Shown: one piece after another, positions 151 through 15,295 of the stretch
Position numbering within the stretch: the first letter of the stretch is position 1
Layout: every line of letters starts with the position of its first letter
From: a virus
Lineage: Duplodnaviria; Heunggongvirae; Uroviricota; Caudoviricetes
DNA length: 15,295 bases
IMG/VR virus record: IMGVR_UViG_2778261085_000006
Location: 1 to 15,295 of that record
Reading direction: 5' to 3' (one strand)
The notes under the pieces: model-generated
Database searches by the model: none
Seen by the model: only the letters and a program-made list of their open reading frames with translations
What the model was told of the DNA's origin: nothing
Translations under genes and position numbers: made by a program

Positions 151-176
151 CACAAAAAACCCGCTCAATAGCGGGC
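151..176 (-). terminator. Rho-independent terminator closing the two-gene cassette; near-duplicate of the tR'-like terminator at 1066..1093
   Basis: Minus strand reads CCCGCT-attg-AGCGGG followed by TTTTTTGTG; located immediately after the stop of the 177..707 CDS. Confidence 0.7.
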
Positions 177-707
177 TTATTCTTCTTCATTGGTATTAGG
201 CGTCGGCATTTGTCGTGACAGACCAGATGCTCTGCCCATTATGAAAACGGATGCCAATCCTATCAGATCAACAGTAATCAGCGTTCCAGCAAAAACAGTA
301 TTACCTCTCCAGGCAAAGACGGTTGCTATCAGCAAAATTAAAAGCGTTATCGAGTAAGCCATCCATTGACCACGCCTGTCTTTTTTTATTGTTCCCGTGA
401 CCGTTGTTTTCTGCATTTCATGACGATGAGCCTGCTCTTTCTCACTTCTTGCCATTATCCGCTCAGCAGCACCTTCAACTATATCATCGTATTCACGTAG
501 CATTGATGGTGGAGGAAGCGGACCACGGAAATAGGTTTGACTTACTATGGCTCTAAATTGAGGTCGCTCGAGGAGCCGTTCAAGAACATTTGGATTTTCA
601 ACCAGCTCCCCTTCTATCTCTTTAGCCAGCTGTTCTGAACTCTTACATGAATCGTTATCGTGCAGTGGCAAGCTGGCGTTTAAGTTTTCTTGCTCTGAGT
701 CTTGCAT
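177..707 (-). CDS. DUF2335-like membrane protein (soluble N-terminal domain, two predicted C-terminal TM helices)
   Basis: 176-aa ORF; GAGG SD 4 nt before ATG at 707; hydrophobic stretches WMAYSITLLILLIATVFAW and TVFAGTLITVDLIGLASVFIMG; motif FRGPLPPPSMLREYDDIV...EKEQAHRHEMQK resembles the DUF2335 family from memory. Confidence 0.75.
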   Translation of the reverse strand: MQDSEQENLNASLPLHDNDSCKSSEQLAKEIEGELVENPNVLERLLERPQFRAIVSQTYFRGPLPPPSMLREYDDIVEGAAERIMARSEKEQAHRHEMQKTTVTGTIKKDRRGQWMAYSITLLILLIATVFAWRGNTVFAGTLITVDLIGLASVFIMGRASGLSRQMPTPNTNEEE

Positions 708-870
708 ATGGCCTCATACTTGTCCGTAAGTCATCGCCTACAGCCTGGAAATCCGAACGTAAAGCATCAGCGTCAGATTTATGAACAACCAGTGCTGTAT
801 AATCAGTAGCAGGTATCAGGTCTATGATGCTACCTGCGGCGCGCATGATTCTGCGAGTTGAGCGCAACAT
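655..870 (-). CDS. Hypothetical 71-aa protein with Arg-rich C-terminal tail; overlaps the start of the DUF2335-like gene by 53 nt in another frame
   Basis: ATG at 870 preceded by AGGAGGT SD with 5-nt spacer; 216-nt ORF; first gene after the tR'-like terminator. Confidence 0.6.
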   Translation of the reverse strand: MLRSTRRIMRAAGSIIDLIPATDYTALVVHKSDADALRSDFQAVGDDLRTSMRPYARLRARKLKRQLATAR

Positions 871-1065
871 ACCGTACCTCCTTACATAGTTAACATCTTA
901 TAGATCACCTTTGGGGTAATCTTAGAATGAGCCATGCAAGCTGTACAGAATTATTTTATAGCGCACGACTTTCAAATTGGCGCACATAAAAGCAATTCCC
1001 CGTAAAAACACAGCAAACGAAGAAAGCAAACTATGCTGGAATCAACTATGGACTTCACTGTTTTT

Positions 1066-1093
1066 CCGGCACAAAAACCCGCTCGTCGGCGGG
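1066..1093 (-). terminator. tR'-like Rho-independent terminator downstream of the late promoter
   Basis: Minus strand reads CCCGCC-gacga-GCGGG followed by TTTTTGTG; about 40 nt downstream of the AACGAT pause element. Confidence 0.65.
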
Positions 1094-1130
1094 TTGTAAA
1101 AATTATTTTAACGTCAGGCATAATACGCCC

Positions 1131-1170
1131 ATCGTTGTGGAAAATTTACCACAGATTCGGGAAAAATCAA
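1131..1170 (-). promoter_or_regulatory. Lambda-like late promoter pR' with qut/pause element (-35 TTGATT, -10 TAAATT, then AACGAT)
   Basis: Minus strand reads TTGATT-16nt-TAAATT-ttccac-AACGAT-GGG, matching the lambda pR' arrangement as recalled (TAAATT -10, 6 nt, AACGAT pause element); lies directly after the Q stop. Confidence 0.6.
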
Positions 1171-1175
1171 CAACA

Positions 1176-1997
1176 CTATCGCGTTACCTTCTTTAACTGC
1201 CACTCCGCCCATGCCTCTTCAATGTCAAACCGAACCACCAACGTATCGTAAAAGCGCTTCACTGATTTTTTCCACGTATCAAGTGTAATAGCACTCGTCA
1301 CTTTGCATATGGCATTAAATGCCTCCGTTGATGGCAGTCGTTCATAACCACGACCGCCACAACGTTGGCAGTCCCTGATAACAGGCATCCCCCGTTTTTC
1401 CGACTCTTCACGATAAATGGCAACACCACGCCCACGGCAATCTTTACAGGCAGTGGAAATCTCCCCCTTCCCTTTACATTCAGGACAGGAAACTTTCACC
1501 ACCTCCCGGATTTTTTTCCATTCTTCCCAGTAAGACGGATACACACCTTTCGTACACTTTGCCCATACTGGCGGCTTGCCATCCGGATACTGAACCTTGC
1601 TTGTAAAAACTTCGCTTTCAATAAATTTTTCCCCATGGCAACAGGGGCACTGCTTTTTACTCGCAGCACTACGGGCATAATCCTCAAAAGCATACGAAGC
1701 CATAATGCGCATCACTGCCGGTTTTATTTCTGCCGGAAGTTTTCTTAACGCCGCCACACTATCGCACTGACTTAATGCATAATCTGCCAGTAATTCTGTT
1801 GCCCGCACTCTGTCATTCATACTGATGCCCATTTTCCCCAGGAACGCAGAAAATCCCATCTCAGCCCGGTTCTGTGTCATGCCCTGTGCAGCCATCACAT
1901 CAGTGATACTCAGTGCATCTTTTGATGTCGAGGCGGATGCATCAGTCAGGCCTGGCGATTTCGGGGAATAGTATTTCGGTAAATCTTCCAGCTTCAT
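1176..1997 (-). CDS. Late-gene antitermination protein Q (zinc-ribbon rich Q family)
   Basis: 273-aa ORF with several CxxC pairs (CPCCHG, CPECKGKG, CKDCRGRG, CQRCGGRG); ATGA start/stop overlap with upstream rusA; followed by pR'/qut/tR' module. Confidence 0.8.
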   Translation of the reverse strand: MKLEDLPKYYSPKSPGLTDASASTSKDALSITDVMAAQGMTQNRAEMGFSAFLGKMGISMNDRVRATELLADYALSQCDSVAALRKLPAEIKPAVMRIMASYAFEDYARSAASKKQCPCCHGEKFIESEVFTSKVQYPDGKPPVWAKCTKGVYPSYWEEWKKIREVVKVSCPECKGKGEISTACKDCRGRGVAIYREESEKRGMPVIRDCQRCGGRGYERLPSTEAFNAICKVTSAITLDTWKKSVKRFYDTLVVRFDIEEAWAEWQLKKVTR

Positions 1998-2368
1998 TTT
2001 TTGACCTGCCCGTCATGCATTATTTCGTAAATCTTCACGCCCAACCGACCACCTGGGACAAGCTGACCGCGCACAATATTGATTTCATCAAACTGCTCGT
2101 CGTCGATAAGCAACCCCGCATGCGTCAACGCATCCAGCGGTGCTTTCAGGATATTGTCCAGGTCACGACGGCGTTTATCCGGCGGCTCTGCGATAACCGT
2201 TATCGCCAGCCTTCCGGACAGGTTTAATTTCAGCCGCTGCTGGCGAACGATAAGCGCCACATCACAGCGATAACGCTTACCGGCTTCAGATATAAAATAT
2301 GTGCTGCCACGACGTCGCCAGTAAGTGTTCACCGTCGGCGGGTAAGGCAAAACAAATTCTATCCCCAT
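1994..2368 (-). CDS. rusA: Crossover junction endodeoxyribonuclease RusA (Holliday junction resolvase)
   Basis: 124 aa; motifs LPYPPTVNTYWRRRG, PDKRRRDLDNILKAPLDALTHAGLLIDDEQF, PGGRLGVKIYEI align with E. coli RusA as recalled; AGAGG SD 7 nt upstream of ATG. Confidence 0.9.
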   Translation of the reverse strand: MGIEFVLPYPPTVNTYWRRRGSTYFISEAGKRYRCDVALIVRQQRLKLNLSGRLAITVIAEPPDKRRRDLDNILKAPLDALTHAGLLIDDEQFDEINIVRGQLVPGGRLGVKIYEIMHDGQVKK

Positions 2369-2380
2369 CAGTAACCTCTT

Positions 2381-3430
2381 TTATCCGAGTACGCCAGTTG
2401 CAAAGGCGTGATCAAGAAAACGAAAAATTAAATCAACCTGAGAACCATGCTTTTCTTCGAACGCCTGCGGATCTGCATGAAGTTCATTGTGATGTTCCCG
2501 GCACAGCGGCAACGTAAAAATATCGTGAGCTTTTGTCCCCATTCCGCCCTGACCGTGACCAATCAGGTGATGGGGATCGTCTGCTGGCTTACCACAACAC
2601 GTACACGGCTGTTTCTTTACCCAGCGCGTGTATTTCTCATTCACCCAGCGGCGACGTTTAGGCCGCTTCATGAATGATTCCGGTGACTCCGGATCAACGG
2701 CAATGCTGACCACCGTCTTTTCCTGTGGTGCGTTCTGTTGCTGGTGGGCGTGAGGCAACGGCGCAAAATTTTTTGTGCGCTGCTTCAGTATGCTGGTGGC
2801 GGTCCGCTCTCCCTGTACGATGTCGCTTTCGCGGTACACCGAGCGGATTTTTTCCGCACGCAACCCCAGAGAACGACGTAATACTGACTCCGGTAGCGCG
2901 TCCGCTACCTGATTGCAGACCGCCCACCAGGATAATTCAGCCAGCGACAATTCCCGCTCCTGCGTGCCATTCATTGCGTGACGGATGACGTCAATCATCC
3001 ATGCTGACAGGTTTTGATGAGCAAGCTGCCCGAGTGATTCGGAAGTCTGGTCACGCAGCTGGTTGTCGCAGTGCCAGCACAACACCATCGCGCCGGTACC
3101 GTAACGATGTATGACGGTTTCACTGTGGTGATAGTCACCATGAGGCCACTGGCAGGATTTAACGTGGCGCAACAGCCAGTCAGAGAGTGCGCCAGCACCA
3201 CCAGCGGCACGAATCACACGCTCATCGCTGAAAAATGGCAGTAATGATTTATCTTCCGCCAGCGGCTGGCGAACGGCAGGAACAACTCCGGACGGCAAAC
3301 ATCGCATGCTTTTCGGTTCCGGTTCCACCAGCACTCGAGGGTTATGAAATACCTGCATGGATTCACGGCCCGGCTTAAGGACCACCAGCCCAAGTTCCGG
3401 TACCGGAACAGGTCGAAGTAATACCCGCAC
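2381..3430 (-). CDS. DUF968 (YdfU-like) prophage protein with C-terminal HNH-like nuclease motif
   Basis: 349-aa ORF, GTG start 1 nt after the stop of the upstream ORF with GGAGGT SD; C-terminal CTCCGK...DPHHLIGHG...LPLCREHHNELH resembles an HNH/zinc-finger nuclease signature; same position as ydfU in Qin. Confidence 0.8.
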   Translation of the reverse strand: MRVLLRPVPVPELGLVVLKPGRESMQVFHNPRVLVEPEPKSMRCLPSGVVPAVRQPLAEDKSLLPFFSDERVIRAAGGAGALSDWLLRHVKSCQWPHGDYHHSETVIHRYGTGAMVLCWHCDNQLRDQTSESLGQLAHQNLSAWMIDVIRHAMNGTQERELSLAELSWWAVCNQVADALPESVLRRSLGLRAEKIRSVYRESDIVQGERTATSILKQRTKNFAPLPHAHQQQNAPQEKTVVSIAVDPESPESFMKRPKRRRWVNEKYTRWVKKQPCTCCGKPADDPHHLIGHGQGGMGTKAHDIFTLPLCREHHNELHADPQAFEEKHGSQVDLIFRFLDHAFATGVLG

Positions 3431-3431
3431 G

Positions 3432-3704
3432 TTACCTCCAGATGCGTTGCTGGAATGTGCGGGATGAACGCGGTGGGCGTTCAGAATAAGGGAGCCTGAC
3501 TGAAATTATCCAGTGTCGGAAGTCAGGACTGAGGTCTTTCTGAAACTCATACCCACGTCTGCGGTAGTTCTGAATCAGCCATTCGGCCTGTTCTTCAGTG
3601 CATGGATCATGCTGGAACCAGTCGGTTTTAAATGCGCGTGAACGCCGCCATTGCCTGCTGGCAGGGGCGGTATCAGAATTGTTAAGTTTTGTGTAATGCA
3701 CCAC
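3432..3704 (-). CDS. Hypothetical 90-aa protein, tightly coupled to the DUF968 gene
   Basis: GTG start with GGGGA SD about 8 nt upstream; stop 1 nt before the DUF968 GTG; no recognised family. Confidence 0.45.
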   Translation of the reverse strand: MVHYTKLNNSDTAPASRQWRRSRAFKTDWFQHDPCTEEQAEWLIQNYRRRGYEFQKDLSPDFRHWIISVRLPYSERPPRSSRTFQQRIWR

Positions 3705-3764
3705 TACTATCCCCGTAATGGTGCGACAGATGTCAGTTGTTCAGGCTGACTTAACCAGTATAAT

Positions 3765-3959
3765 TTAGTCTTCTTTAATACAGAAGTGGCTAACAGAATC
3801 CATGTGCGCTTCTTTACTGATCAAAATGGCATCAGGTGGTAGTGGTATTACAACAAAGTCGCCATTCTCAAAAGTTATCACTTCATAACTACCAGGAACA
3901 GAAAGCGTGGCAATTAATTCCTTATCGTTCATAACCAAAATCCCATGAACTTTAAACAC
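3765..3959 (-). CDS. Hypothetical small protein (about 55 aa if started at ATG 3932, 64 aa from GTG 3959)
   Basis: AT-rich small ORF between the hok terminator and the 90-aa ORF; start site ambiguous and SD weak. Confidence 0.3.
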   Translation of the reverse strand: MFKVHGILVMNDKELIATLSVPGSYEVITFENGDFVVIPLPPDAILISKEAHMDSVSHFCIKED

Positions 3960-4091
3960 ATCCCCTTAAGGGGGCCATCCCTCTTCTCCCTGCGCGCTAA
4001 CTAAGTAATATGATTCTATTTACCCCAAACGGCCCCTCAAGAACCGCACCCAATGGAGTACACAAAAAGCTAATCAACTACGCCGCACAAT

Positions 4092-4112
4092 AAAAAAACC
4101 CGCCGAAGCGGG
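4092..4112 (-). terminator. Rho-independent terminator downstream of hok
   Basis: Plus strand AAAAAAA-CCCGC-cgaa-GCGGG, i.e. on the minus strand a 5-bp GC stem followed by a U7 run. Confidence 0.7.
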
Positions 4113-4186
4113 TTAAGTGCGGGTGCGTTGAGGATGCCTGACACATCATAGGTGGCGGGGGATAAAAATCCCCCGCCAGGTCACCC

Positions 4187-4342
4187 TTACTCCTCAGATT
4201 CGTAAGCTGTGAAGACAGTGACCTCCGTCTGGCCGGTTCGGATTCGTACCTCGCAGAGGTCTTTCCTCGTTACCAGTGCCGTCACTATGACGGTTAAACA
4301 GATGACGATCAGGGCGATTAACATCGCCTTTTGCTGCTTCAT
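4187..4342 (-). CDS. hokD: Hok/Gef-family type I toxin (HokD/RelF-like small membrane toxin)
   Basis: 51 aa MKQQKAMLIALIVICLTVIVTALVTRKDLCEVRIRTGQTEVTVFTAYESEE, near-identical to HokD/RelF as recalled; AAGGAG SD 9 nt upstream; perfect 9-bp hairpin 10 nt after the stop. Confidence 0.9.
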   Translation of the reverse strand: MKQQKAMLIALIVICLTVIVTALVTRKDLCEVRIRTGQTEVTVFTAYESEE

Positions 4343-4680
4343 AGCCAGCTTCTCCTTGCCTTTCGGCACGTAAGAGGCTAACCTACATGTGTAAAGCATG
4401 AAATTGGCCTCAGATTAATGTTAAGCGTCTTGCCGGACGCGTAATGTTAACTGGGGCTTTTCTCTGTCTGCCTTACAGTGGCATGCCCGAGGCAGACAGC
4501 CTCAAGCACCCGCAACAATCTTACCGACACCGATAAGAAAACGCTATTTTTTATTGCCAGAACCTTCTGCCCAGGCTAATGTATCCGCGTCAGAACGGCG
4601 CAATGCGCTCGCCTGAGATACGTTTACTTGTCATTGGTGGCAACAGATAACGGCAATTGTTATTTCTGTTTGTTTCCTTC

Positions 4681-4714
4681 AAAAACCCCGGACCGTCAAT
4701 CCGGGGTTTTTGTT
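4681..4714. terminator. Bidirectional Rho-independent terminator separating the DUF4406 gene from the hok locus
   Basis: AAAAA-CCCCGGA-ccgtcaa-TCCGGGG-TTTTTGTTT: 7-bp stem flanked by an A-run and a T-run. Confidence 0.7.
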
Positions 4715-4993
4715 TGCTATCCCCAGCGGCAAATCGAATACACCACCACCGCCATTGCAATTCCTGCCGTTGTGAATGCTTCAGGCCAAGTCATCGCAAA
4801 ACATCCTTCACACTTACCAGCCCGTTCTGTTTCAGATACGCCATCGCCTGTTAAGCCTCACTCGCCAGTATTTATGTTCACACGATCAGGGATAAATATG
4901 CCTTTACTCTTAAATGTCGGATTTCAATATTCGAGATTTCTTGCCAACGCCGCGCACGGTTCTATCTTATTACCATTAATTTGGCACTTTGAC

Positions 4994-5293
4994 TCACTCA
5001 CTGTTATCCTCCTGGAAAATAACCGCATGCCCCAGCTTCTCCGCCAGTGCCAGTTCTGCCTTAGCACCTGCTGACCGCTGCCAGCCTTTCAGCATGTAAA
5101 TCGCATCCACGCAGCGTATCATCGCCATGCAAATATCCATGTAGTGTGGCTGTGTCAGCCCATCCGGAAGTACTGCCGGGTTTAAGACTGTATGCCCTTC
5201 ACGTTTCAGTTCCTCTTCCGCCTTGTGAAACGCCTCACGGTTGAAATTTTTATATCCCGTCATTGGGCCGGCAATATAAACTCTCACCCTCAC
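4994..5293 (-). CDS. DUF4406 (nucleoside 2-deoxyribosyltransferase-like) prophage protein
   Basis: N-terminal VYIAGPMTG motif typical of DUF4406; GTG start at 5293 or 5287 (GGAG SD before 5287); 4-nt overlap with upstream gene. Confidence 0.75.
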   Translation of the reverse strand: MRVRVYIAGPMTGYKNFNREAFHKAEEELKREGHTVLNPAVLPDGLTQPHYMDICMAMIRCVDAIYMLKGWQRSAGAKAELALAEKLGHAVIFQEDNSE

Positions 5294-5544
5294 TCCTGAA
5301 CTCTCCTGTCGAAATAAACGTAGTTATTCACTGTGCGCAACGGCATTCCAAATTTTATGGCGATTTCTCTCCTGGAGACGCCACGCTGATGCAGTTTTCG
5401 CGCCAGCTCAATATCGCTCTGAAGATATTTTGCTGACTGGTGAAAATCACCACGCAGAATCAGACTTATTCCCATCTCCCGGGCTTTCGTCCTGACCGCC
5501 GCCTCACTACGACCAATCAGACTGCCGATGCTTTTTACCTTCAT
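5290..5544 (-). CDS. Small HTH DNA-binding protein (84 aa)
   Basis: ATG at 5544 inside a longer GTG-initiated frame; C-terminal RGVSRREIAIKFGMPLRTVNNYV looks like a helix-turn-helix; SD weak. Confidence 0.55.
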   Translation of the reverse strand: MKVKSIGSLIGRSEAAVRTKAREMGISLILRGDFHQSAKYLQSDIELARKLHQRGVSRREIAIKFGMPLRTVNNYVYFDRRVQE

Positions 5545-5600
5545 TGTTCCCGCGCACTGCCGAAGAATAAGGATTTCAGCCCGCACCCAGCCACGCCATC

Positions 5601-6362
5601 TCACTTCACATCCTCTCCGGAACAATTCATCTGCCGTATAATATCCCGGTGCTTGTTCAGCTCCTGCAGCGCGGCGCAGACACGTTCCCACTTCCGGATA
5701 TGACTTTTTGCCCGGCGCAGTTCACGGTTTGCCATATGTAGCGATGGCAGCATTACATAGTCGGTATGTTTTTCGGTGAACGATGGCAGTGACCGCACAA
5801 TATCCGCCACCGTTTCTGTTTTAATTTCTTCCTGTGTTGCCGCTTCCTGTACCGGTAATGCAACCCCCGCTGGCTGAGGAAAGGCTTTACCATCAGTTTC
5901 CGCTACCGATGCGGCTTTCAGTTCTGCTGGTAAATTCTCGCCTGGCATGCAGTAACGAAATTTACCGTTCTGATTAACGCGTGCCAGCCGCCCTGTTGAG
6001 GTTACTACCGCCAGCGTGGAAGCAACCTTGCGAATGCTGACACCGAACTTACCCGCCAGTTCCTCACACGTTTTAGCCCCCTCCTTGCCGATAAACTCAA
6101 TCATCATGTCAGCGGTAACTTTTTGTTCGCCCACCCCGGTTAGCACATCCGGTGCTTCAGATTGTACTGGCCGCTCTTCGGTTACCCCGGATTCACCTTC
6201 ACCAGCCAGAAACCAGGTATGACCTGTTTTATCAACGACGCCATTTCTTTTGAGTTCCCACAGCTCGTTCAGCACTTCTTCACGACTGATATCAAGTCGC
6301 GCGGCCAGTTCCACCGACGTGGCTTTTCCCATTGCGTTCAGTGCGTCAAAAACAGTCTCCAT
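5601..6362 (-). CDS. Prophage protein with N-terminal winged-helix-like domain (DUF1627-like)
   Basis: ATG at 6362 with GGGAGG SD 8 nt upstream; [43 protein letters not shown] resembles DUF1627 from memory. Confidence 0.6.
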
Positions 6363-6384
6363 TAAAATTTCCTCCCGGTAAAAA

Positions 6385-7130
6385 TTACTTCTCAATTCCT
6401 GGCTGGATGACATTCGTGCGCCAGCTCTCCCAGTTAAAATTCACCCAGCGACCACCGTTCATGGTCATGCGGTCCATTACGCGCTCGCCAAGCAGCGTAT
6501 TCATCGCCGTATGGTTCAGGTTCGTCAGCATCCCGACGCTGTGCATCGAGGCCGTTCTGCGATCGACTATCTGGTTCAGAGTGACCTGTTCGTTACGCGT
6601 ATCCCGCTGCATACCGATTTCATCCAGGATAAGCAGGTCAACCTCACACAACCCCTGCAAAAATTTTTGCCCGAGTTTTTGTTGTCGTAGTTGCCGTGTA
6701 ACGCCAGCATCACATCCGCCACCGTCACCACAATCATGCTGCGACCTTTCGCCAGAAGATGGTTGCCGATGGCTGCCGCCAGGTGATTTTTTCCGGTACC
6801 CGGCTTACCGCTGAACACAAAATTTGTGCACCAGGTCATCAGCTCGTCCGCAATGGACTTCGCCTGGCTGAGTGCATGACGCTGTCCGTCGATCTGCACC
6901 AGGTAATTCGCAAACGAACATTTCTGGTGCAACGGCTGGATACCGGAACGATTCAGGAATTTTTCCACCCGTAACTGGAGATTCTGGCGGTTAATTTCCT
7001 CACTACGCTTTCGCCCTTCCGCAAGCTGCCACCCCCGCCACTCGTCCACTGTCCGGTACGGCGCGGTTACATGCTGCGGGGCCAGCTTACGGATACGCTC
7101 AAGAACACCACCTGCCGCAATATTTTTCAT
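6385..7130 (-). pseudogene. DnaC-like replicative helicase loader, disrupted by a single-base frameshift in an A5T5 homopolymer near 6659..6668
   Basis: ORF 6576..7130 carries DnaC N-terminus and Walker A (FSGKPGTGKNHLAAAIG) but ends in nonsense; overlapping ORF 6385..6660 in another frame carries the DnaC C-terminus (DLLILDEIG...NQIVDRR...LGERVMDRM); frames join across GGCAAAAATTTTTGCAG. Confidence 0.8.
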
Positions 7131-7136
7131 AACCCG

Positions 7137-8246
7137 TTACCCCCTGAATCCCGGCGGAATTTCGGTGTCCGGTTCAGAAATGTGATTCACACAACGCTGG
7201 TTGTTCGTGCCGCTTACCGGAATCAACCAGGGGTTTTCAAAATTCCGGTCCGGTCCAAAAAACGTCGTCGCTCGCTGAACAAATTCCGTTCCCGTTTTCC
7301 CGGTAGCCGCCAGGTATCTTGCATAACGCCTCACACCATCCATCATGGCCTCTGGTGGCACCCCCTCGCGTAATCTGGCCTTCCAGGCACTGAATGCGGA
7401 TTTCTTCGGGTTTGCCCCGGCACGCAACGGGTATTCCCGCCAGACCTGTTCGAACACATCCGGATAATCCACCCGTCCCACAGGCTGCCCGGTGTTTTCC
7501 GGGACTACCCGATCGGCTTCCCGCTGAATGGCGGAATCGGCTTCAGGCTGCTGCAGTTGGTGTGATTGTTCCGGCCTTGCGGTCATCGCCTGCTGCACAG
7601 CTCCCGAATCGGCTTTCAGCGCATACGCTGAATCGGCTTCCGGTGTCGTGCCTGCTGGCTGACCAGAATTTACGGTCTGAACATCCCCTGCCTGGTTCAT
7701 GGTGTTTTTTTCGCCATGAACCATAGTGTTTTTGTCCTGTTCCTGTTCTTTCTCCTGCTCCTGTTCTTGGCTTCGAAGCCCCTTAAAAGCCCCTTCGAAG
7801 CCCCTTACAGAATTTCGGCTATTATTCCGCCTCACATCCAGATGGAAATCCGTTTTATATCTGTCGTAAAACGCTGACAGAAAAGCGTTTTCAGGTAATG
7901 ATGCATACTCATTCCTGACACCTGCACAACGGTTATCGCCAGGCTTCAACGTTTCCCCAACCTGCCAGGCTGCCATTTCATGGACCCAGACCATCTCTGC
8001 ATCATGGTCATAGCTACAAAAACCAGCTTCAACAGCCCTTTTAAGCCCCTTTGAAGCCCCTTCCAGACCAAGCCCGGTTTCATGAGCAAGGTATAAAACT
8101 GGCAGGTAATACAAACCCAGCATATTTGCGTGAGGGGATGTCATCAGGTAAAAAGCAACAACTTGCGCTTCTGCACCCGCCTTTCTAAGTTCTCTCCCCG
8201 TTTCTCCCAGCCAGAATCGCGGAGAAACTTTTGCGTAATCACGCAT
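7137..8246 (-). CDS. Phage replication initiator (O-like) with internal repeat/linker region
   Basis: 370 aa from ATG 8246 (GAGGT SD); immediately upstream of the DnaC-like gene; central low-complexity QEQEQEKEQEQ plus PEADSA repeats; C-terminal YPDVFEQVWREYP...AWKARLREGV resembles phage replication-protein C-terminal domains. Confidence 0.7.
   Translation of the reverse strand: MRDYAKVSPRFWLGETGRELRKAGAEAQVVAFYLMTSPHANMLGLYYLPVLYLAHETGLGLEGASKGLKRAVEAGFCSYDHDAEMVWVHEMAAWQVGETLKPGDNRCAGVRNEYASLPENAFLSAFYDRYKTDFHLDVRRNNSRNSVRGFEGAFKGLRSQEQEQEKEQEQDKNTMVHGEKNTMNQAGDVQTVNSGQPAGTTPEADSAYALKADSGAVQQAMTARPEQSHQLQQPEADSAIQREADRVVPENTGQPVGRVDYPDVFEQVWREYPLRAGANPKKSAFSAWKARLREGVPPEAMMDGVRRYARYLAATGKTGTEFVQRATTFFGPDRNFENPWLIPVSGTNNQRCVNHISEPDTEIPPGFRG
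7511..7639. repeat. Four iteron-like copies of GAATCGGCTT inside the O-like gene (candidate origin-binding sites)
   Basis: Copies begin near 7511, 7534, 7606 and 7630 (spacing about 23, 72, 24 bp); followed by a T-rich tract at 7695..7770. Confidence 0.55.
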
Positions 8247-8324
8247 GGCTACCTCATCTGGTGCCGAAGCTTCCTCCGGATATAATCTGTGGTTCCCAAT
8301 CGACAGAACCAGAGGAGGTTCGAC

Positions 8325-8780
8325 ATGTATTTTTTGAAAAGCCTTTATCAGGCTCATGTATTAAATGTTGCAGCAACAAACCGCTGGTGTAACAGCCCCG
8401 AAATGCTCCCGGATTACAGAGCCTGGCTGCGCGCAGAAACATACCTTCGTCTCGACATATTGATTAGCGAACTTCAAAAAGAGACTGCATCCATTCATAA
8501 CCTTCAGGGTATCGACGCTGTTCGCATTCTGGTATCGCGCCATAGTGCTCTCTCAATAATTGAAGTGCGTCATCTCTCTTTTTCTGAACTGATTTTCTTG
8601 CTTCAACCAGCTCTGGAATCAGCGAATATCCCACCGGAAGTGATCCAATACCCACCTCATGTTGACGAGCAGTTACAAGATGTGCCATACAACCAGCGTG
8701 CTGGATTGACTCCCTGCTCAGAGGCTGAATGGGATCACTCTCTGCTGAAGAAATACCAAGATTTGTATAATCCTCAATAA
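8325..8780 (+). CDS. Hypothetical antisense-oriented protein (151 aa) with near-consensus SD
   Basis: GAGGAGGT at 8312..8319, 5-nt spacer, ATG at 8325; overlaps the minus-strand ORF 8464..8973 by 317 nt, so at most one is likely fully real. Confidence 0.3.
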   Translation: MYFLKSLYQAHVLNVAATNRWCNSPEMLPDYRAWLRAETYLRLDILISELQKETASIHNLQGIDAVRILVSRHSALSIIEVRHLSFSELIFLLQPALESANIPPEVIQYPPHVDEQLQDVPYNQRAGLTPCSEAEWDHSLLKKYQDLYNPQ

Positions 8781-8973
8781 GCCCGGCACACGCTTCTGCA
8801 TCAGCCAGCTTTATTCTGGTTTCCTTGCGCTGTTCTCTGGCTGACAAACGCCAGAGCAGCGCATTAACTTTATGTATCAACCACTCTGCCAGCTCCACAT
8901 CAGATAAACCGCCACGCCAGATGTGCGGACTGTTTTCGTAAACGCTCAGTGTCAATTTTTTGTCATTACTCAT
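8464..8973 (-). CDS. Hypothetical protein (169 aa from ATG 8973) between the YdaT-like and O-like genes
   Basis: Same strand as the surrounding operon; E. coli-like codon choice (CTG, CGT, GAA frequent); SD weak; conflicts with the antisense ORF 8325..8780. Confidence 0.45.
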   Translation of the reverse strand: MSNDKKLTLSVYENSPHIWRGGLSDVELAEWLIHKVNALLWRLSAREQRKETRIKLADAEACAGLIEDYTNLGISSAESDPIQPLSRESIQHAGCMAHLVTARQHEVGIGSLPVGYSLIPELVEARKSVQKKRDDALQLLREHYGAIPECEQRRYPEGYEWMQSLFEVR

Positions 8974-8986
8974 ATTTATTACCCAA

Positions 8987-9412
8987 TTAATGCACAGCCA
9001 GAGTGTTTCCTGCCGGGCCACCACGATTCATCTGATCGAACAGAACTATCGCTGATGCAACTAAATCATCGATATCTTTCACCAGCCGTTCCTGCGTCTC
9101 CACCAGCTCCCGAAAATAAGCGGAACTGTGGCTGCGCATTCGGGCCACCAGCGGAGGCGGCATCGCTTTTTCGATAGCTGGTAACAACGCCTGAATTTTT
9201 TTAACCGCGTCAGGGGTATCTTTCTCCAGCCAGCGGAAAATTTTCTGGGTATTACGGCCCAGGGCTTCCGGATGGCTGTCGTCGAACAGTTCAGGAAACG
9301 TCAGACCCAACTCGAAATAAGCCCGGGTTATTTCAGCTGCCGGAACTTTTTCACCGTCCGGATATGCCCAGGCATTCATCGCCATGCGGATGTGTTCATG
9401 CTTGATTTTCAT
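8987..9412 (-). CDS. YdaT-like (CII-position) protein
   Basis: 141 aa; GGAG SD 8 nt upstream; 17-nt overlap with the upstream Cro-like gene; same position and size as ydaT in Rac. Confidence 0.65.
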   Translation of the reverse strand: MKIKHEHIRMAMNAWAYPDGEKVPAAEITRAYFELGLTFPELFDDSHPEALGRNTQKIFRWLEKDTPDAVKKIQALLPAIEKAMPPPLVARMRSHSSAYFRELVETQERLVKDIDDLVASAIVLFDQMNRGGPAGNTLAVH

Positions 9413-9671
9413 GAATCAACTCCGGTGTATTTGATGTGTTAGCCTTATCTCCATCAGGCACCCCGTCAGTTGGATTCGGGTATAAATCTGGTCGCAATTC
9501 ATGAGGAGTCACCCCAGTTGCAATATAAATTTGACGAACCCGTTCTCCCGTCGGTACTCGACCATTGTATTCATTTGCCCATTTGTGTATTTGAGACGGC
9601 CAAGCCCCTATTGCACGCCCTAGCGGACGAATACCACCAGCAATCTTTATTGCTTTGTCCAATGCTGTCAT
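9396..9671 (-). CDS. Cro-like HTH regulator (YdaS/DicC position)
   Basis: 91 aa; GGAGG SD 4 nt before ATG; divergent from the repressor gene; N-terminus MTALDKAIKIAGGIRPLGRAIG resembles YdaS-type Cro-like proteins. Confidence 0.7.
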   Translation of the reverse strand: MTALDKAIKIAGGIRPLGRAIGAWPSQIHKWANEYNGRVPTGERVRQIYIATGVTPHELRPDLYPNPTDGVPDGDKANTSNTPELIHENQA

Positions 9672-9693
9672 ACAACCTCCAATTCAACTAACC

Positions 9694-9770
9694 TTAACAA
9701 TTGTTCACTTAAAACGAACATAAGTCAACACCTCGAGGAATTGTTAGTGTTCACTGAACGGTTATAATTG
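9694..9770. promoter_or_regulatory. Divergent immunity promoter/operator region with two operator sites of form TTGTT(C/A)-N9-GAAC
   Basis: Operators at 9701..9721 and 9741..9761; plus-strand promoter -35 TTGTTA (9741..9746) and -10 TATAAT (9764..9769), 6 nt from the repressor ATG; minus-strand promoter -35 TTGACT and -10 AACAAT overlapping operator 1. Confidence 0.6.
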
Positions 9771-9774
9771 CTAA

Positions 9775-10164
9775 ATGGACATGAGAAAAAAGCAATACGA
9801 CACCCCGCTAGCAGAAAGGTTAGATACGATCTCGCAACAGCATCATTTAAGTGGTTCAGATTTAGCGCGTATCGCTGGTGTAGGTCGTTCATCAGTCAAC
9901 GCATGGAAAAAAAGAGGAACAATCAGTAAAGATTCCGCAGCCAAAATTGCGGAAGCTACAAACGTTTCCCTTTCTTGGCTACTGACAGGAAAAGAAGAGA
10001 CAAATAGAGAGGCACTTGATGATGACGAGAAGGCCCTGCTTGATGTTTACAGAAGCCTGCCACCTGTAGAACGTAGAAATATGCTGGCAGCTTTTCAAAT
10101 GCGACTTCAAAAACTGACCGAATTTTACTCAGAATACGTCGACCCAATAACAAGACAAAAATAA
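9775..10164 (+). CDS. DicA-like XRE-family HTH repressor (short CI analogue without peptidase domain)
   Basis: 129 aa; N-terminal HTH (SGSDLARIAGVGRSSVNAWKKRG); C-terminal ALLDVYRSLPPVERRNMLAAF resembles the DicA C-terminal region; divergent to the Cro-like gene. Confidence 0.8.
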   Translation: MDMRKKQYDTPLAERLDTISQQHHLSGSDLARIAGVGRSSVNAWKKRGTISKDSAAKIAEATNVSLSWLLTGKEETNREALDDDEKALLDVYRSLPPVERRNMLAAFQMRLQKLTEFYSEYVDPITRQK

Positions 10165-10185
10165 TTCTTTATTTTACAGAATCAT

Positions 10186-10209
10186 ACCGCCGCAAGGCGG
10201 TTTTTTTTT
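10186..10209 (+). terminator. Rho-independent terminator after the repressor gene
   Basis: ACCGCC-gcaa-GGCGGT followed by a T9 run. Confidence 0.8.
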
Positions 10210-10230
10210 GCTTTTCGCGCACTCATTATG

Positions 10231-10259
10231 TTGACATTTGTTCACCTTGGAAGAACAAT
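10231..10259 (+). promoter_or_regulatory. Promoter of the leftward (dicB-operon-like) transcript with a third repressor operator
   Basis: -35 TTGACA (10231..10236), 17-nt spacer, -10 AACAAT (10254..10259); operator TTGTTC-N9-GAACAA at 10238..10258 matches the two sites in the divergent region. Confidence 0.55.
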
Positions 10260-10333
10260 GTATTCCATCAAAGCACAACGGTGCGACAGGTCTTAGTTCC
10301 GCTACCCCGGCGTTAAGGGGAAATGAGGTCAGC

Positions 10334-10486
10334 ATGGATACTATCGATCTTGGCAACAGCGAATCTCTGGTATGTGGCGTGTTCCCCAACCAGGACGGTA
10401 CGTTCACCGCGATGACGTATACCAAAAGCAAAACGTTTAAAACCGAAACTGGCGCGCGTCGCTGGTTAGCCAGAAACACTGACTGA
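10334..10486 (+). CDS. YdfA-like small protein (50 aa)
   Basis: GAGGT SD 4 nt before ATG at 10334; MDTIDLGNSESLVCGVFPNQDGTFTAMTYTKSKTFK resembles Qin YdfA as recalled; first gene after the DicA-repressed promoter. Confidence 0.65.
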   Translation: MDTIDLGNSESLVCGVFPNQDGTFTAMTYTKSKTFKTETGARRWLARNTD

Positions 10487-10497
10487 TGAGGTTGACG

Positions 10498-11136
10498 ATG
10501 GAATTTAAAGATTTACCAATATCAATACAGGAAATGGCCGCTGATGTGATTCGCTCGCAACTGGCGCGGAACCCAATGATATTAGTAGATAAAGTGTTCA
10601 TCATAAATTTATCAAATCATGTCCGCAATTCTTTTACCGGACTGTATTCAGATTCGTTCACAAACAATCATTGTGTAGAAAATAAAGCAAAGCCCATTGC
10701 AGAAACGATAACGCAAAACATCAATACGAAACAAACCGAAGAAGAAATTGACCAGTTTACCCGAGATACTGGCTTAAAATGCAGGAAAGAAAAATCGCCA
10801 TATGCGGGGAATATGTTTGTTTATGACAACCTTATCCGAATTCGTGGCGAAATTCCGACTGAATACCTAGCAAGAATTCACCGGGCATTACTTAAAAATC
10901 TGGAAACGGAAGTATTTGATGGCAATACCAACGGCTCCTTCGTGGTGTCAACTCTCGCAAAAGAGTGGGATACAGATAATCGCTGGAATGTTGCCACATG
11001 GTTATTCAGCAACAAAGCTGCTGCCCTGGAAGCTGCGGCCTGTATTTGCGACCTGCTAAGGACAGACCGCAAATACAACCTGGATGTGTATAGCTATATT
11101 TATGCTGAACACTATCCGCTATGGATTAACTGGTAA
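10498..11136 (+). CDS. Hypothetical 212-aa soluble protein, AT-rich, unknown family (candidate accessory/defence moron)
   Basis: GAGGT SD 5 nt before ATG at 10498; 1-nt TGATG overlap between the ydfA-like stop and an upstream in-frame ATG; GC visibly lower than flanking genes (about 38% in the first 60 nt counted by hand); no TM segments or recognisable motifs. Confidence 0.7.
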   Translation: MEFKDLPISIQEMAADVIRSQLARNPMILVDKVFIINLSNHVRNSFTGLYSDSFTNNHCVENKAKPIAETITQNINTKQTEEEIDQFTRDTGLKCRKEKSPYAGNMFVYDNLIRIRGEIPTEYLARIHRALLKNLETEVFDGNTNGSFVVSTLAKEWDTDNRWNVATWLFSNKAAALEAAACICDLLRTDRKYNLDVYSYIYAEHYPLWINW

Positions 11137-11346
11137 TTACAAAGCTGCACCAGCAGGGCCACGGCGACCAGCGCCACGATTGTAATCAATGATGCCATTA
11201 TAAAGCGCATTATTTAATTTATCGTCGAATGCCGATTCTGTGAGCCCTAGCACTGAATGAGTTTTTAATAACCCTGATTGCCTGAGTTGATTAACCAGGC
11301 ATTCAATCTGTTTTTCAATAATCGGATGTATTGGCTTGTTTGGCAT
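11137..11346 (-). CDS. Hypothetical 70-aa protein, convergent with the 212-aa gene
   Basis: GGAGGA SD 5 nt before ATG at 11346; its stop codon directly abuts the stop of the 212-aa gene (TAATTA); Gly/Arg/Ala-rich C-terminal tail. Confidence 0.45.
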   Translation of the reverse strand: MPNKPIHPIIEKQIECLVNQLRQSGLLKTHSVLGLTESAFDDKLNNALYNGIIDYNRGAGRRGPAGAAL

Positions 11347-11669
11347 TTTATCCTCCATTGAAGTTACTGGTTGAGAATGGAGACCACACGTGACAGCGTG
11401 TTGTCGTGCGCCGGACACGGATAAGAATCCGGCACTGACAGTTTACTGAAAGAATATATCCCTGAAAAGTCAGGGCATAACTCGAAAGCGCACGGCGGAG
11501 GTGTCTTTTCCTTAGAAGGCTTGTCGTTAGATTTCTTCGACCGTGCGCTTCCGGTTGTGGCACTCCGCGAAATGGCGCGGCGGTAAGTATGGCGGGGTTA
11601 TCCTTACCCCATTAGTGGCACCGGGTTGTCAGGTTGACCATACGCTTAAGTGACATCCCCGCTGCAACA

Positions 11670-11735
11670 ACCCATGTTGATTACCTTTTGGCGGGTATCC
11701 GTTTTTTGTTTTCCCTTGTGATACCCGCCCTTTTT
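11670..11735 (+). ncRNA. DicF-like small RNA candidate (processed sRNA ending in an intrinsic terminator)
   Basis: 10-bp perfect stem GGCGGGTATC / GATACCCGCC with a U-rich 20-nt loop, followed by CTTTTT; 5' flank UUUUGGCGGGUAUC resembles DicF UUUGGCGGUAUC as recalled; sits in a non-coding stretch of the DicA-repressed operon. Confidence 0.4.
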
Positions 11736-12001
11736 AAAGTGAATTTTGTGATGCGGTGAATGCGGCTAAGCGCACGCGGAACAGTTAAAAAGGACAGTTG
11801 ACATTCGTATTGGTTCTTATGGGTGGGTTATCTGTATCCGGCGTTAATTGTTAACTGGTTAACGTCACCTGGAGGCACCAGGCATCGCATCAACAAAATT
11901 CACTTCAGTGATGAAAGGTGAGAGAAAATGTTGAATGTAGCTATTGAAAACCAGAACGGGTGGAATTATAGTGCACCTGCACCTCATAAAACGGGTGCCG
12001 G

Positions 12002-12212
12002 GATTTGCACCCCGATGATCACTAGAGCGCATAACCGCGCCAAAGCGGTTTTTTTATGCGTAAAGCGCAGCCACATTCAGATTATGGTGGGGCGTATGGG
12101 GCCGTTTTCGGGCGGGCCGGATTCTCTAGTGACCGGTAGTGCAAACCCTGTACGTCTCACCACCCATGAGATTTGCACCTACGGTGGTGAGTTTACCAAC
12201 TTATCACTAGAG
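12002..12212. repeat. Three copies of a bipartite motif TTTGCAC-N-TCACTAGAG (direct, inverted, direct) upstream of the Rha gene
   Basis: Copy 1 at 12004..12027, inverted copy CTCTAGTGA...GTGCAAA at 12124..12146, copy 3 at 12172..12212 with a longer internal spacer. Confidence 0.5.
12034..12055 (+). terminator. Possible intrinsic terminator/attenuator in the Rha leader
   Basis: ACCGC-gccaaa-GCGGT followed by T7; stem is only 5 bp. Confidence 0.4.
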
Positions 12213-12221
12213 GCTGCCATC

Positions 12222-12776
12222 ATGGCTACTATCCCTACCCTGTCTCACCCTGACGTAACCATCGAAAACGGTCGCGCTATCACTACGTCTGTTGCGATCG
12301 CAGAGTTCTTTGGCAAACGACACGACAACGTGTTACGTGCCATCGCAAACATTGAATGCTCAGAAAAATTTAACGCCCTCAATTTTGAGGACGTAACGTA
12401 CACCGACGCCAAAGGCGAAAAACGTCCAATGTACCAAATCACCAAAAACGGCTTCGTTTTCCTGGTGATGGGCTTCACTGGCAAAAAAGCCGCTGCATTC
12501 AAAGAGGCCTACATTGCTGAGTTCGACCGCATGGAGGCAGAGCTGCGTCAGAATAACACCCCACCAACTGACAAAATAATTCCTGGCGATGGTCGCACTC
12601 TGGTTGTTCGATTCGACGAACACGGCAATATCAAATTCACCGAAACCGTTCCTGATGGTGCAATGGTCTGTACTCTGGATACCTTCCAGTTTTATCTGGA
12701 GAAACAGGGATGGACACTTGTAAACCGGAGCGCAATTAGAAACATGACTGTCGAACAATTGCTGCGTATTAAATAG
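12222..12776 (+). CDS. Rha-family phage regulatory protein (antirepressor-like)
   Basis: N-terminal AIAEFFGKRHDNVLRAIANIECSEKFNALNFE...MYQITKNGFVFLVMGFTGKKAAAFKEAYIAEFDRME matches the Rha N-terminal domain; the in-frame extension back to 11928 contains a terminator and repeats, so was not taken as coding. Confidence 0.75.
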   Translation: MATIPTLSHPDVTIENGRAITTSVAIAEFFGKRHDNVLRAIANIECSEKFNALNFEDVTYTDAKGEKRPMYQITKNGFVFLVMGFTGKKAAAFKEAYIAEFDRMEAELRQNNTPPTDKIIPGDGRTLVVRFDEHGNIKFTETVPDGAMVCTLDTFQFYLEKQGWTLVNRSAIRNMTVEQLLRIK

Positions 12777-12821
12777 TTTTCTGGAATTTACTTCATATGA
12801 CTAATTATTATGGAGATAATT

Positions 12822-13043
12822 ATGATTGCTCATCACTTCGGAACTGATGAAATACCACGTCAGTGTGTGACTCCAGGCGATTATGTTCTTCATGAGGGCA
12901 GGACATATATTGCATCGGCAAACAATATTAAAAAGCGAAAACTTTATATTCGTAGCCTGACCACAAAAACATGCATAACTGGCTGCATGGTTAAAGTTTT
13001 CCTCGGTCGTGATGGATTACCTGTAAAGGCTGAGTCATGGTGA
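12822..13043 (+). CDS. Small 73-aa protein at the position and size of Rac KilR (identity unverified)
   Basis: GGAG SD 6 nt before ATG at 12822; lies between the Rha and RecE-like genes. Confidence 0.5.
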
Positions 13044-13295
13044 TAGACAGGAAAATAAAATGCGCTTACCTCCTTTGCAATAAAGGATTTGAAGAAAGCA
13101 AAAGTATTAAAAACCACTTCATTTCATGCGTGGCGTTATCCAAACAACGGAAATGAAAAAAAAATATTGTAGTGAAATCTGTGCCGAAAAAGACCAGATG
13201 GCACATGAACTTTAATTAACTGACTGAACGAAACTGAATTTATGCCTGCAATGGCAGGGATTCGCTCAGCCTTAAAATAGTTATGAGGTTTATCA

Positions 13296-15295
13296 ATGAG
13301 TATTGATAAAGAAGAATTTGCACTATATTGCGAAGCAAAAAATGACAAAGTCAGAAAACGCCTGGGAATTAAAGGCGGTTTTTACTGGACTACAGCAAAA
13401 AAATTATCTGTTGCAATCTCCCGCTGCATTACCGCAATGGATGACAACGATTATGATGAAGACGACTTTAAAAAACCGGTCCGAGTCCATTTACCCGTTG
13501 TGAATGACCTTCCACCGGAAGGCGTGTTTGATACGGAATTCTGCAACCGATACGAAAAAGGCGGGGAAGATGGCATCACAATGGTATTTATCGCCCCATC
13601 TCCCTCTGCGCAGGACAACCAGGTCAGCACTGACAATACCAATGTTAATGGCGAAGACATGACGGAGATTGAGGAGAATATGCTACTCCCGATTTCCGGT
13701 CAGGAACTGCCCATTCGCTGGCTTGCTCAACACGGCAGCGAAAAACCGGTAACGCACGTTTCACGCGACGAACTCCAGGCATTACACATTGCACGGGCTG
13801 AAGAACTACCAGCTGTTACTGCCCTGGCTGTTTCCCACAAAACCAGCCTGCTCGACCCGCTGGAAATTCGCGATCTCTACAAACTGGTTCGTGACACTGA
13901 CAACGTTTTCCCTAATCCTGGTAATTCAGACCTGGGACTGATGACTGCTTTTTTCGAAGCATACCTGGGCGCTGACTACACTGATCGTGGTCTGCTTACA
14001 AAAGAGTGGATGAAGGGGAATCGTGTTTCACGTATCACCCGCACGGCTTCCGGTGCAAATGCCGGTGGCGGGAACAAAACCGATCGCAATCCGAATTTAG
14101 TACACACCTTCGATACGCTGGATGTGGAGATTGCAGCAGCCACACTTCCGATGGATTTTAATATTTATGAAATTCCGGGCAGCGTTTATCGTCGCGCAAA
14201 AGAAATCGTCCTGAAAAGAGAAAGTCCGTTCAAAGAATGGTCCGCAGCACTTCGCGCAACCCCGGGTATTCTGGATTATTCCCGCGCCGCTATTTTTGCA
14301 CTTATCCGGAGCGCATACCCTGAGTTTTATCATTACCCGGGACGCCTTCAGAGGTATATCAATGCCTATTTAACGGAGACTGATCACGAGAACCCTACCG
14401 AGGAAACTCTCACTGCTGCACGACATACACCGGAAAAAGATATCCTGGAAGAAGTTAACCGCGAACTGGCCGCTGAACGCGAAACAGAAGAAGAAAAAAA
14501 TAATGAGGAAAAATCACAACCGTCTGACGCAATGGCAGATGAACAGGCAACGACTGAAGCAATGGGACAGGATACAACTGAATATCGCCAGGACACTCAA
14601 TCGCTGGATACTCAGGCACAGATAAATCCGGTTAATCAGGTAAAAGTTACCGCTGACGAAGTAAACAAAATTATGCAGGCAGCCAATATCAACCAGCCTG
14701 ATGCCGACAAAATACTGGCAGTCCATCGCGGTGAATTCGTTGACGGAATTAGCGACCCGAATGATCCGAAATGGGTTAAGGGGATTGAAACCCGCGATTC
14801 TGTGAACCAGAACCTGCCAGAATCGGAACAAAACAGCCAAAATGCGTTACAAAACGAGCCAGAAACGAAACAGCCTGAACCAGAAGAGCAACAAGAACCG
14901 GAAAAAGTCTGCACCGCCTGCGGTCAGACCGGCGGCGGCAACTGTCCTGACTGTGGCGCGGTGATGGGCGACGCAACATACAAGGAAACATTCGATGAAG
15001 AGAATCAGGTTGAAGTTCAGGAAAATGATCCGGAGGAAATGGAAGGCGCTGAACATCCACACAAGGAGAATGCTGGCAGCGCTCAGGACCACGCCAGCGA
15101 TAATGAAACTGGCGAGGCGGCAGATCACTCAATTAAGGTGAACGGTCATCACGAAATCACATCCACCAGCAGGACGTGTGACCATCTAATGATCGACCTC
15201 GAAACCATGGGAAAAAACCCTGATGCCCCGATTATCTCAATAGGTGCAATATTTTTCGATCCGCAAACCGGAGATATGGGACCGGAATTTAGTAA
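13296..15295 (+). CDS. Large RecE/exodeoxyribonuclease VIII-like protein, partial (continues past window end); has a zinc ribbon and the start of a DEDD-type 3'-5' exonuclease domain
   Basis: GAGGT SD 6 nt before ATG at 13296; at least 666 codons with no in-frame stop (checked codon by codon); [18 protein letters not shown] zinc ribbon; [26 protein letters not shown] matches exonuclease motif I; not in the ORF track because it lacks a stop in the window. Confidence 0.8.

Follow-up and report, generated by a model that had tools for sequence, protein, structure and literature searches.

We analysed a stretch of viral DNA of 15,295 nucleotides (nt), positions 1 to 15,295 of IMG/VR record IMGVR_UViG_2778261085_000006 (hereafter the window), which is the early region of a Rac-like lambdoid prophage of EHEC-type (enterohaemorrhagic) Escherichia coli. 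Two convergent open reading frames (ORFs) in this region share 317 nt on opposite strands: a plus-strand ORF of the ECs1072 family (the plus gene) and a minus-strand ORF of the family phrog_8304 (the minus gene). The pair lies between a YdaT/CII-like gene and a replication gene, with the minus gene beginning 13 nt past the ydaT stop. Our reading, to which we assign a probability of about 0.7, is that both ORFs are genuine genes and that they form one mobile two-gene cassette—its 3' halves on opposite strands of the same DNA—in an accessory slot of the early region. An earlier note, made from the sequence alone, had recorded the two ORFs, a Shine-Dalgarno sequence (SD) GAGGAGGT with good spacing ahead of the plus gene, the 317-nt overlap, and the operon orientation of the minus ORF between cII-like and O-like genes; all of these are borne out, the flanks being the YdaT/CII-like and replication genes. 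The genes at the locus are as follows (aa, amino acids).

8325-8780, plus strand: plus gene, 151 aa, ATG at 8325, stop at 8780; NCBIfam NF033230 'ECs1072 family'
8464-8973, minus strand: minus gene, 169 aa, ATG at 8973, stop at 8464; phrog_8304
8464-8780, both strands: stretch shared by the plus and minus genes, 317 nt
8987-9412, minus strand: YdaT/CII-like gene; Pfam PF06254 YdaT_toxin (3.7e-10), phrog_163 'CII-like'
7137-8246, minus strand: replication-initiation (O/DnaD-like) gene; phrog_1701/3729
9396-9671, minus strand: YdaS/Cro-like gene, early-right operon
6576-7130, minus strand: DnaC/IstB-like gene, early-right operon
9775-10164, plus strand: CI-like repressor

The plus protein matches NF033230 with 105.7 bits (E = 2.1e-30) over profile positions 3-141 of 142, well above the 70-bit cutoff that this curated whole-protein hidden Markov model sets for membership. 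NF033230 is classed as a hypothetical equivalog, and its entry is silent both on function and on the gene of the opposite strand. The SD occupies 8312-8319, 5 nt ahead of the plus ATG, and the GGAGGTTCGACATG block at the start of the gene is kept in almost every lineage. AlphaFold2 (AF2), given eight sequences only, models the plus protein confidently over its full length, with a predicted local distance difference test score (pLDDT) of 89.5 and a predicted template modelling score (pTM) of 0.86; the protein is predicted to be a soluble, all-helical globule.

The minus protein matches phrog_8304 over 169/169 positions (396.8 bits, E = 1.7e-119). Judged by score per position, phrog_8304 is a shallow family of near-identical sequences, and no function is given there; the minus family as collected here has 23 representatives at 50% identity. 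Its conserved N-terminal motif, TLxVxKNSPHIWxGGL..LAxWL..ANA, is followed by long helices and a variable C-terminal tail, and the stop is one of two conserved positions. Where the minus start is not coupled to ydaT, an SD-like GGAG/GAGG precedes the homologous ATG by 5-9 nt. The start codons of the two genes both appear functional. The AF2 model of the minus protein has an overall pLDDT of 69.6 and a pTM of 0.43, with values of 74-85 in the N-terminal part.

Standard pipelines keep one member of the pair and so drop what is probably a real gene. The Prokaryotic Genome Annotation Pipeline (PGAP) annotates the plus gene alone at this locus in E. coli genomes, as ECs1072 family, and annotation with NF033230 suppresses the minus gene; PHROGs includes the minus gene but not the plus gene, and some gene callers likewise chose the minus gene.

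Tests of coding in the shared stretch

Homologues were found with protein and profile searches, and the DNA that encodes them was then retrieved, giving 46 distinct versions of the module in about 20 deep lineages (individual sequences are referred to below by L numbers). The hosts are E. coli, Salmonella enterica (including subsp. diarizonae), Klebsiella oxytoca, K. quasipneumoniae, Enterobacter ludwigii and Izhakiella australiensis, and further versions come from IMG/VR prophage contigs. Amino acid identity of both proteins to those of the window extends down to ~35%. The two ORFs nearly always co-occur, and they do so convergently, with an overlap of 257-323 nt and in an identical frame relation—the first codon positions of the two genes face each other, and the second position of each gene faces the third of the other. 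Most of the 46 sequences and about 20 deep lineages have both ORFs intact, as expected of a conserved dual-coding pair; either gene can decay, and the intact pair is the rule.

Outside the overlap each gene is under purifying selection on its own part. The earlier note had proposed a comparison of nonsynonymous and synonymous rates (dN/dS) in both frames, and this finds both constrained there. In the plus-only region (46 codons) the corresponding ratio dNN/dSN is 0.08 (confidence interval 0.01-0.19), amino acid-altering changes being 12-fold rarer than synonymous ones, and in the minus-only codons 2-63 (62 codons) the NG86 estimate of dN/dS is 0.04-0.21 for eight E. coli-clade pairs, and about 0.1-0.2 for those deeper pairs in which dS is still estimable. 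Both non-overlapping flanks show an excess of third-position differences (for example 1,1,7 and 1,2,5 over the three codon positions), unlike the overlap, in which substitutions are spread evenly (8,9,11; 8,9,9; 13,14,17). Each frame is free of stops up to the point where it runs into the other gene, and both proteins therefore contain residues encoded in the overlap.

Three kinds of test bear on the overlap itself. The plus protein sequence and ordinary codon usage served to predict the stops to be expected in the minus frame, and the minus frame is open for longer than this expectation (summed -ln p of 34.6 over 16 deep lineages; gamma tail P = 1.5e-4); in the control, which is the same frame upstream of the minus stop, 37 stops were observed and 34.8 expected. 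Both proteins were also subjected to random synonymous re-coding in eight phylogenetically independent deep pairs. Re-coding of the plus protein predicts a minus-frame identity of 118.4 (standard deviation 9.1), against 247 observed (z = 14.1; plus-only control z = 1.0), and the reciprocal re-coding predicts a plus-frame identity of 113.9, against 267 observed (z = 16.8; control z = 2.0). Each frame of the overlap is thus about twice as conserved as the protein of the other frame alone would make it, and the conservation of neither is a by-product of the other's protein. An OLGenie-like test over three independent close contrasts gave ratios of 0.45 for the plus frame (confidence interval 0.23-0.89) and 0.45 for the minus frame (0.23-0.87), with a minus-frame control of 1.09-2.5, and parsimony on the tree gave NN/NS ratios of 0.22-0.59 for the plus frame.

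Taken together, these results make dual coding of 8464-8780 by both genes highly probable. Our reading is that the plus gene would be the dominant frame in the shared stretch, and that the C-terminal half of the minus protein is probably real but more malleable. The earlier note had described the two ORFs as mutually exclusive, but both are intact and constrained across homologues. As what would refute it, it had named homologues that conserve only the minus frame and interrupt the plus frame by stops; the plus frame is instead intact in all deep lineages, besides its NF033230 match and its confident predicted fold. Among the three alternatives it offered, the one in which both ORFs are expressed gains comparative evidence that both are coding, whereas a spurious minus ORF and a spurious plus ORF are both disfavoured. 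Its remark that the minus ORF has the more E. coli-like codon choice does not hold up: the mean ln relative synonymous codon usage, measured against the window genes, is +0.04 for the minus gene and -0.01 for the plus gene, rare codons number 14/169 and 7/151, and codon usage does not discriminate between them.

Recurrence, leader and accessory slot

The stretch 8100-9100 has 99.3% identity to loci in O157:H7, O26, O121 and other genomes and is matched in 522/5426 complete E. coli genomes; the full two-ORF module is found in about 8% of complete E. coli genomes. Neither protein was matched by tblastn in 50,697 GenBank phage genomes, where there was no DNA match either, and among GTDB representative genomes the plus profile found nothing and the minus profile one locus (Izhakiella) and no others. 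To date the module is known from prophages and other integrated elements only, and it seems confined to integrated, possibly defective, elements.

In the window and at ten further loci with informative flanks (among them L003, L078, L082, L087, L088 and L090-L093) the minus gene is co-oriented with the upstream cro/ydaT/cox genes and the downstream replication/recE genes. L080 (3191-3835) and L081, from a single metagenomic lineage, have the cassette on the left side of a cI-like repressor, at the rex/N position and not downstream of cro/cII.

In prophages of this kind, published work has established YdaS as the analogue of Cro and YdaT as that of CII (PMC8630535, PMC9986795). At 9402-9419, in the ydaS/ydaT junction, there is a perfect YdaT operator, TTGATTTTCATGAATCAA (TTGATTN6AATCAA); this is the PRE position and, in CP-933P, the site of the described YdaT-activated PRE promoter. 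A YdaT-activated promoter for the plus gene was considered and rejected, as the other operator-like site, at 8460-8477, has two mismatches and is within chance expectation; this copy straddles the minus stop codon. On the far side of the pair, the replication gene starts at ATG 8246: PHROG alignments begin at residue 38 of the 406-aa ORF, and the PGAP start of the homologous replication gene is the equivalent of 8246. The 406-aa reading of the ORF (ATG 8357) would overlap the start of the plus gene; homologues begin at 8246. The DnaC/IstB-like ORF is short, at 184 aa, and PGAP marks this ORF and the replication gene alike as frameshifted in close genomes; this suggests that the replication module of the prophage is decaying.

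The ~75 nt upstream of the plus ATG (8253-8327) is conserved in all lineages, whatever the flanking genes. Two features of this leader are recognized.

8258-8286, plus strand: putative sigma-70 promoter of the plus gene, with a -35-like CTGGTG (8258-8263), a 17-nt spacer and a -10 TATAAT (8281-8286)
8261-8326, plus strand: long-range inverted repeat, GTGCCGAAGCTTC (8261-8273) against GGAGGTTCGACAT (8314-8326)

A -10 of the form T-A-n-n-n-T (TATAAT, TAGCCT with an upstream TGn, TATCCT or TATTCT) and a TGGTGCC block stay in register across 15-20 diverged lineages; the -35 is weak, and a strict promoter scan therefore makes no call here. The right arm of the 13-nt repeat covers the SD and the AU of the plus start codon, and a local palindrome, GAACC (8306-8310) and GGTTC (8317-8321), flanks the SD. 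RNAalifold over 15 lineages gives 11 pairs with 95% of the cells paired. The single compensatory change is in L082, where U-A has become C-G and ATG has become GTG, and because the arms are nearly invariant, covariation cannot separate an RNA (anti-SD) structure from a DNA operator. The repeat pairs the promoter spacer with the SD and start codon, the putative -10 lying between the arms, so that the repeat could serve as an anti-SD only in longer transcripts or the minus-strand early mRNA, or else as a DNA operator. No Rfam family was found in 7900-9800, and the plus 5' region has no significant RNA fold (z = -0.6).

The leader is also present, at 88-92% identity, in about 60 other E. coli genomes without the two ORFs. 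The same slot there has various contents:

L084: 83-aa reverse gene abutting a 98-aa forward gene
L085 (E. coli 3-72): 131-aa reverse gene, which is PD-Lambda-6 (PADLOC PDLC04020, 9.2e-90)
L086: 137-aa forward gene
L145 (E. coli VL40): empty slot, the leader abutting the ydaT stop

Differing cargo, or none, behind one leader marks the slot as a dispensable and exchangeable accessory site; the ~75-nt leader is a portable unit, and the site between ydaT and the replication gene is a previously undescribed accessory hotspot. In a sibling element this variable hotspot is occupied by a known defence gene. Cloned under its native promoter, PD-Lambda-6 protects uninduced K-12 against phage (PMC9519451), and a reverse-oriented gene of this slot is therefore of the kind expected to be lysogen-expressed. 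The suggestion of the earlier note that a reverse-oriented accessory or defence gene sits in the early operon is thereby favoured by context, the same leader and slot carrying PD-Lambda-6, but its corollary that the minus ORF would then be spurious is not.

In L085, the 234-nt gap between PD-Lambda-6 and ydaT (2972-3205) contains an unannotated forward ORF, whose predicted product of about 69 aa has a hydrophobic, membrane-like segment. Reverse cargo in the slot may generally be paired with a convergent forward partner (compare L084 and L086). A candidate N-terminal motif common to the minus protein and the L086 forward gene reaches 4 bits only and is not claimed.

Possible roles and rival explanations

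Searches for function yielded no sequence or fold relative of known function for either protein. Neither protein has a match in Pfam, and neither matches a known defence model in PADLOC at E <= 1. Profile searches against PDB sequences found nothing for the minus protein and nothing below E = 0.3 for the plus protein, and Foldseek against BFVD found nothing below E = 2. The co-oriented, co-transcribed genes, toxin fold and DNA-binding antitoxin of a type II toxin-antitoxin system are not seen here.

Our best inference casts the plus gene as an accessory or defence gene expressed in the lysogen and the minus gene as its opposing partner in the early operon, the two being coupled by convergent transcription. 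In the lysogen the early operon (promoter PR) would be repressed and the plus gene alone transcribed, as an accessory, defence or exclusion function. Upon induction or infection, transcription from PR would cross the minus gene and then the whole of the plus gene in antisense before reaching the replication genes; such read-through would collide with plus transcription and produce an RNA fully complementary to the plus mRNA, shutting the plus gene down, and the same transcription would yield the minus protein, a possible antagonist of the plus protein or substitute for it. Because they share coding sequence, the two genes would be kept from recombinational separation. A cassette in a slot that elsewhere holds a validated defence gene is thus a candidate defence/counter-defence pair, regulated by convergent transcription. 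This specific switch, with the two products expressed in opposite life-cycle states, is put forward tentatively, the odds being somewhat against it; still less likely is the particular version in which the plus protein is a lysogen-only effector and the minus protein its antidote, made when the early operon fires. If that effector/antidote switch were real, convergent transcription over 317 nt would impose mutually exclusive expression on a genetically inseparable pair, which would be a new build of effector/immunity pair, distinct from operonic toxin-antitoxin systems.

A number of observations count against the pair as read here. Nonsense alleles of the plus gene occur in three sequences with the minus gene intact in all three: W34* together with an SD change (GGAGG to GGTGG) in L090, W34* in L037 (4001-4456), a lineage independent of L090, and E98* in L036 (4001-4456). 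Nor is the pair obligatory, as the minus gene is frameshifted in L080/81—to an 83-aa N-terminal fragment—and in L041/42, the downstream frame being still open, and L082/L083 carry an intact plus gene without the minus gene, the minus frame having stops. The position of the cassette in L080/81 breaks the rule that the minus gene belongs to the early-right operon. The tree-based NN/NS of the minus frame is weak on short branches, at 0.58-0.99 with confidence intervals touching 1 (control 0.74-1.69), the overlap-encoded half of the minus protein is modelled at low confidence (pLDDT 51-76), and the conserved motifs of the two frames coincide in place, as expected under shared constraint. The plus promoter is a consensus reading, inferred from aligned sequence. 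With the four function searches negative, defence is read from position alone. The only expression trace is a microarray change for ECs1072 that is not strand-resolved, and the supplements of a ribosome-profiling (Ribo-seq) paper on strain Sakai have no ECs1072 entry.

The W34* change (TGG to TAG) arose in two independent lineages, which are 99% and 84% identical to the window. Repeated loss of the plus gene could mean that its protein is costly.

Several rival explanations were considered. If the plus gene alone were real, as PGAP has it, the minus ORF would be a shadow ORF open by chance opposite a conserved gene, and it is true that PGAP annotates the plus but not the minus gene in hundreds of genomes, that in some lineages a minus frame would stay open by chance opposite the plus protein with a probability of 0.2-0.45, and that the minus gene is frameshifted or absent in three. 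However, the first 64 minus codons, which lie outside the plus gene, show the dN/dS of 0.04-0.21 and the third-position excess described above, the minus start has an SD or ydaT coupling, and the family retains 33-50% identity with conservative substitutions; with minus identity in the overlap at twice the by-product expectation (z = 14.1) and an open length that is improbable overall (P = 1.5e-4), we regard this explanation as very improbable. The converse, in which the minus gene alone is real and the plus ORF is a chance frame with a strong SD, is scarcely credible given the 105.7-bit NF033230 match, the dNN/dSN of 0.08 in the plus-only region, the conservation of SD, ATG and leader in all lineages, the pLDDT of 89.5, the reciprocal re-coding result (z = 16.8), and the intact plus gene that L082/L083 keep without any minus gene; what speaks for it is the operon orientation of the minus gene, its choice by PHROGs and several gene callers, and the three sequences with plus nonsense mutations. 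A subtler possibility is translation of both ORFs with function in the minus protein limited to its N-terminal ~65-90 residues, the overlap half being a tolerated read-through tail; the additional conservation at synonymous sites of the plus gene would then reflect nucleotide-level constraint, such as the structure or stability of the mRNA or an antisense RNA. The weak minus selection in the overlap on short branches (NN/NS 0.58-0.99), the low AF2 confidence of that half, the two stop positions and variable tail, the 83-aa N-terminal fragment retained in L080/81, and short family members of 68-99 aa in the protein library all fit such a tail. Both of its parts are nevertheless improbable: 16 deep lineages have minus frames free of stops over 84-129 codons, whereas stops occur in the control frame at the expected rate, the motifs Y..LG.S..SDPI.PLS.EAIQ and PVGYSLLPDL.E are kept in 22 family representatives with protein-like substitutions, the pooled close contrasts give 0.45 for the minus frame (confidence interval 0.23-0.87), and neither an Rfam family nor a significant RNA fold was detected.

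The remaining rival concerns role rather than coding. The cassette might belong to the phage's own control of lysis-lysogeny or replication and not to defence, with, for example, the plus transcript acting mainly as an antisense brake that limits read-through to the replication genes and its protein being secondary. Its position directly between the CII-like and replication genes would suit this, as would the conserved inverted repeat that covers the intergenic leader even in the empty slot, the lack of a defence-model match, and the occurrence of the cassette in P4-like or integrase-cox elements beside regulatory genes. A core regulator, though, would not be expected in a dispensable slot that in sibling prophages is empty or filled with unrelated cargo, a validated defence gene is among the alternatives, the plus protein is under purifying selection and predicted to be well folded, and recurrent plus nonsense knock-outs are tolerated. 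We therefore consider such a control function unlikely, if less so than a read-through tail, and retain the two-gene accessory cassette as the preferred reading.

Comparison with known systems

We found no report of the ECs1072/phrog_8304 overlap in the searchable literature, in which the two families are individually catalogued, without function. The lambda rexAB and P22 sieB-esc modules are familiar cases of lysogen-expressed accessory genes in or beside the immunity region, and in the latter an esc-type second product prevents self-exclusion; the genes of these modules point the same way or are nested in one frame and do not converge from opposite strands, and they have no sequence or fold similarity to the present pair. 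PD-Lambda-6 (Vassallo et al. 2022) shares with the plus gene its slot between ydaT and the replication gene, its orientation and its leader of ~80 nt ending in GGAGGTTCGACATG. It differs in being an unrelated protein whose reverse gene does not overlap a forward gene, and its defence phenotype is not transferable to ECs1072.

Long antisense overlaps of two bacterial or phage genes are rare and often disputed, and most candidates are young embedded ORFs with expression support. The overlapping ORFs described in EHEC are mostly of this sort—young, taxonomically restricted and embedded in an older gene, with support from RNA-seq, Ribo-seq and phenotypes (PMC7103648, PMC6294744, PMC5960689). The genes nog1, asa, ano, laoB and pop resemble the present pair in having a long antisense overlap in an O157-type genome and in that pipelines keep one gene of each pair (PMC7103648, PMC6294744, PMC5960689). 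The genes described here differ from these in being of similar size, in overlapping by their 3' halves with coding parts of their own, and in cross-genus conservation to ~35% identity. Comparative evidence instead supports the present pair, with about 260-320 nt shared across several enterobacterial genera, and it offers a natural test case for the co-evolution of two proteins on one stretch of DNA.

The closest known architecture, and the closest proposed logic, is that of the Pseudomonas phage Fc02, in which the lysogen-expressed olg1 overlaps the early-lytic gene 10 in antisense and both are reported to exclude superinfecting phages (PMC9936078). In the olg1/olg2 and gene 10 arrangement, as in that proposed here, a lysogen gene beside the repressor is antisense to an early lytic gene. 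Fc02 is a Mu-like Beetrevirus, and no sequence relationship is expected; expression and phenotype were demonstrated for Fc02, and the deep conservation of the overlap that characterizes the present pair was not the point of the Fc02 work.

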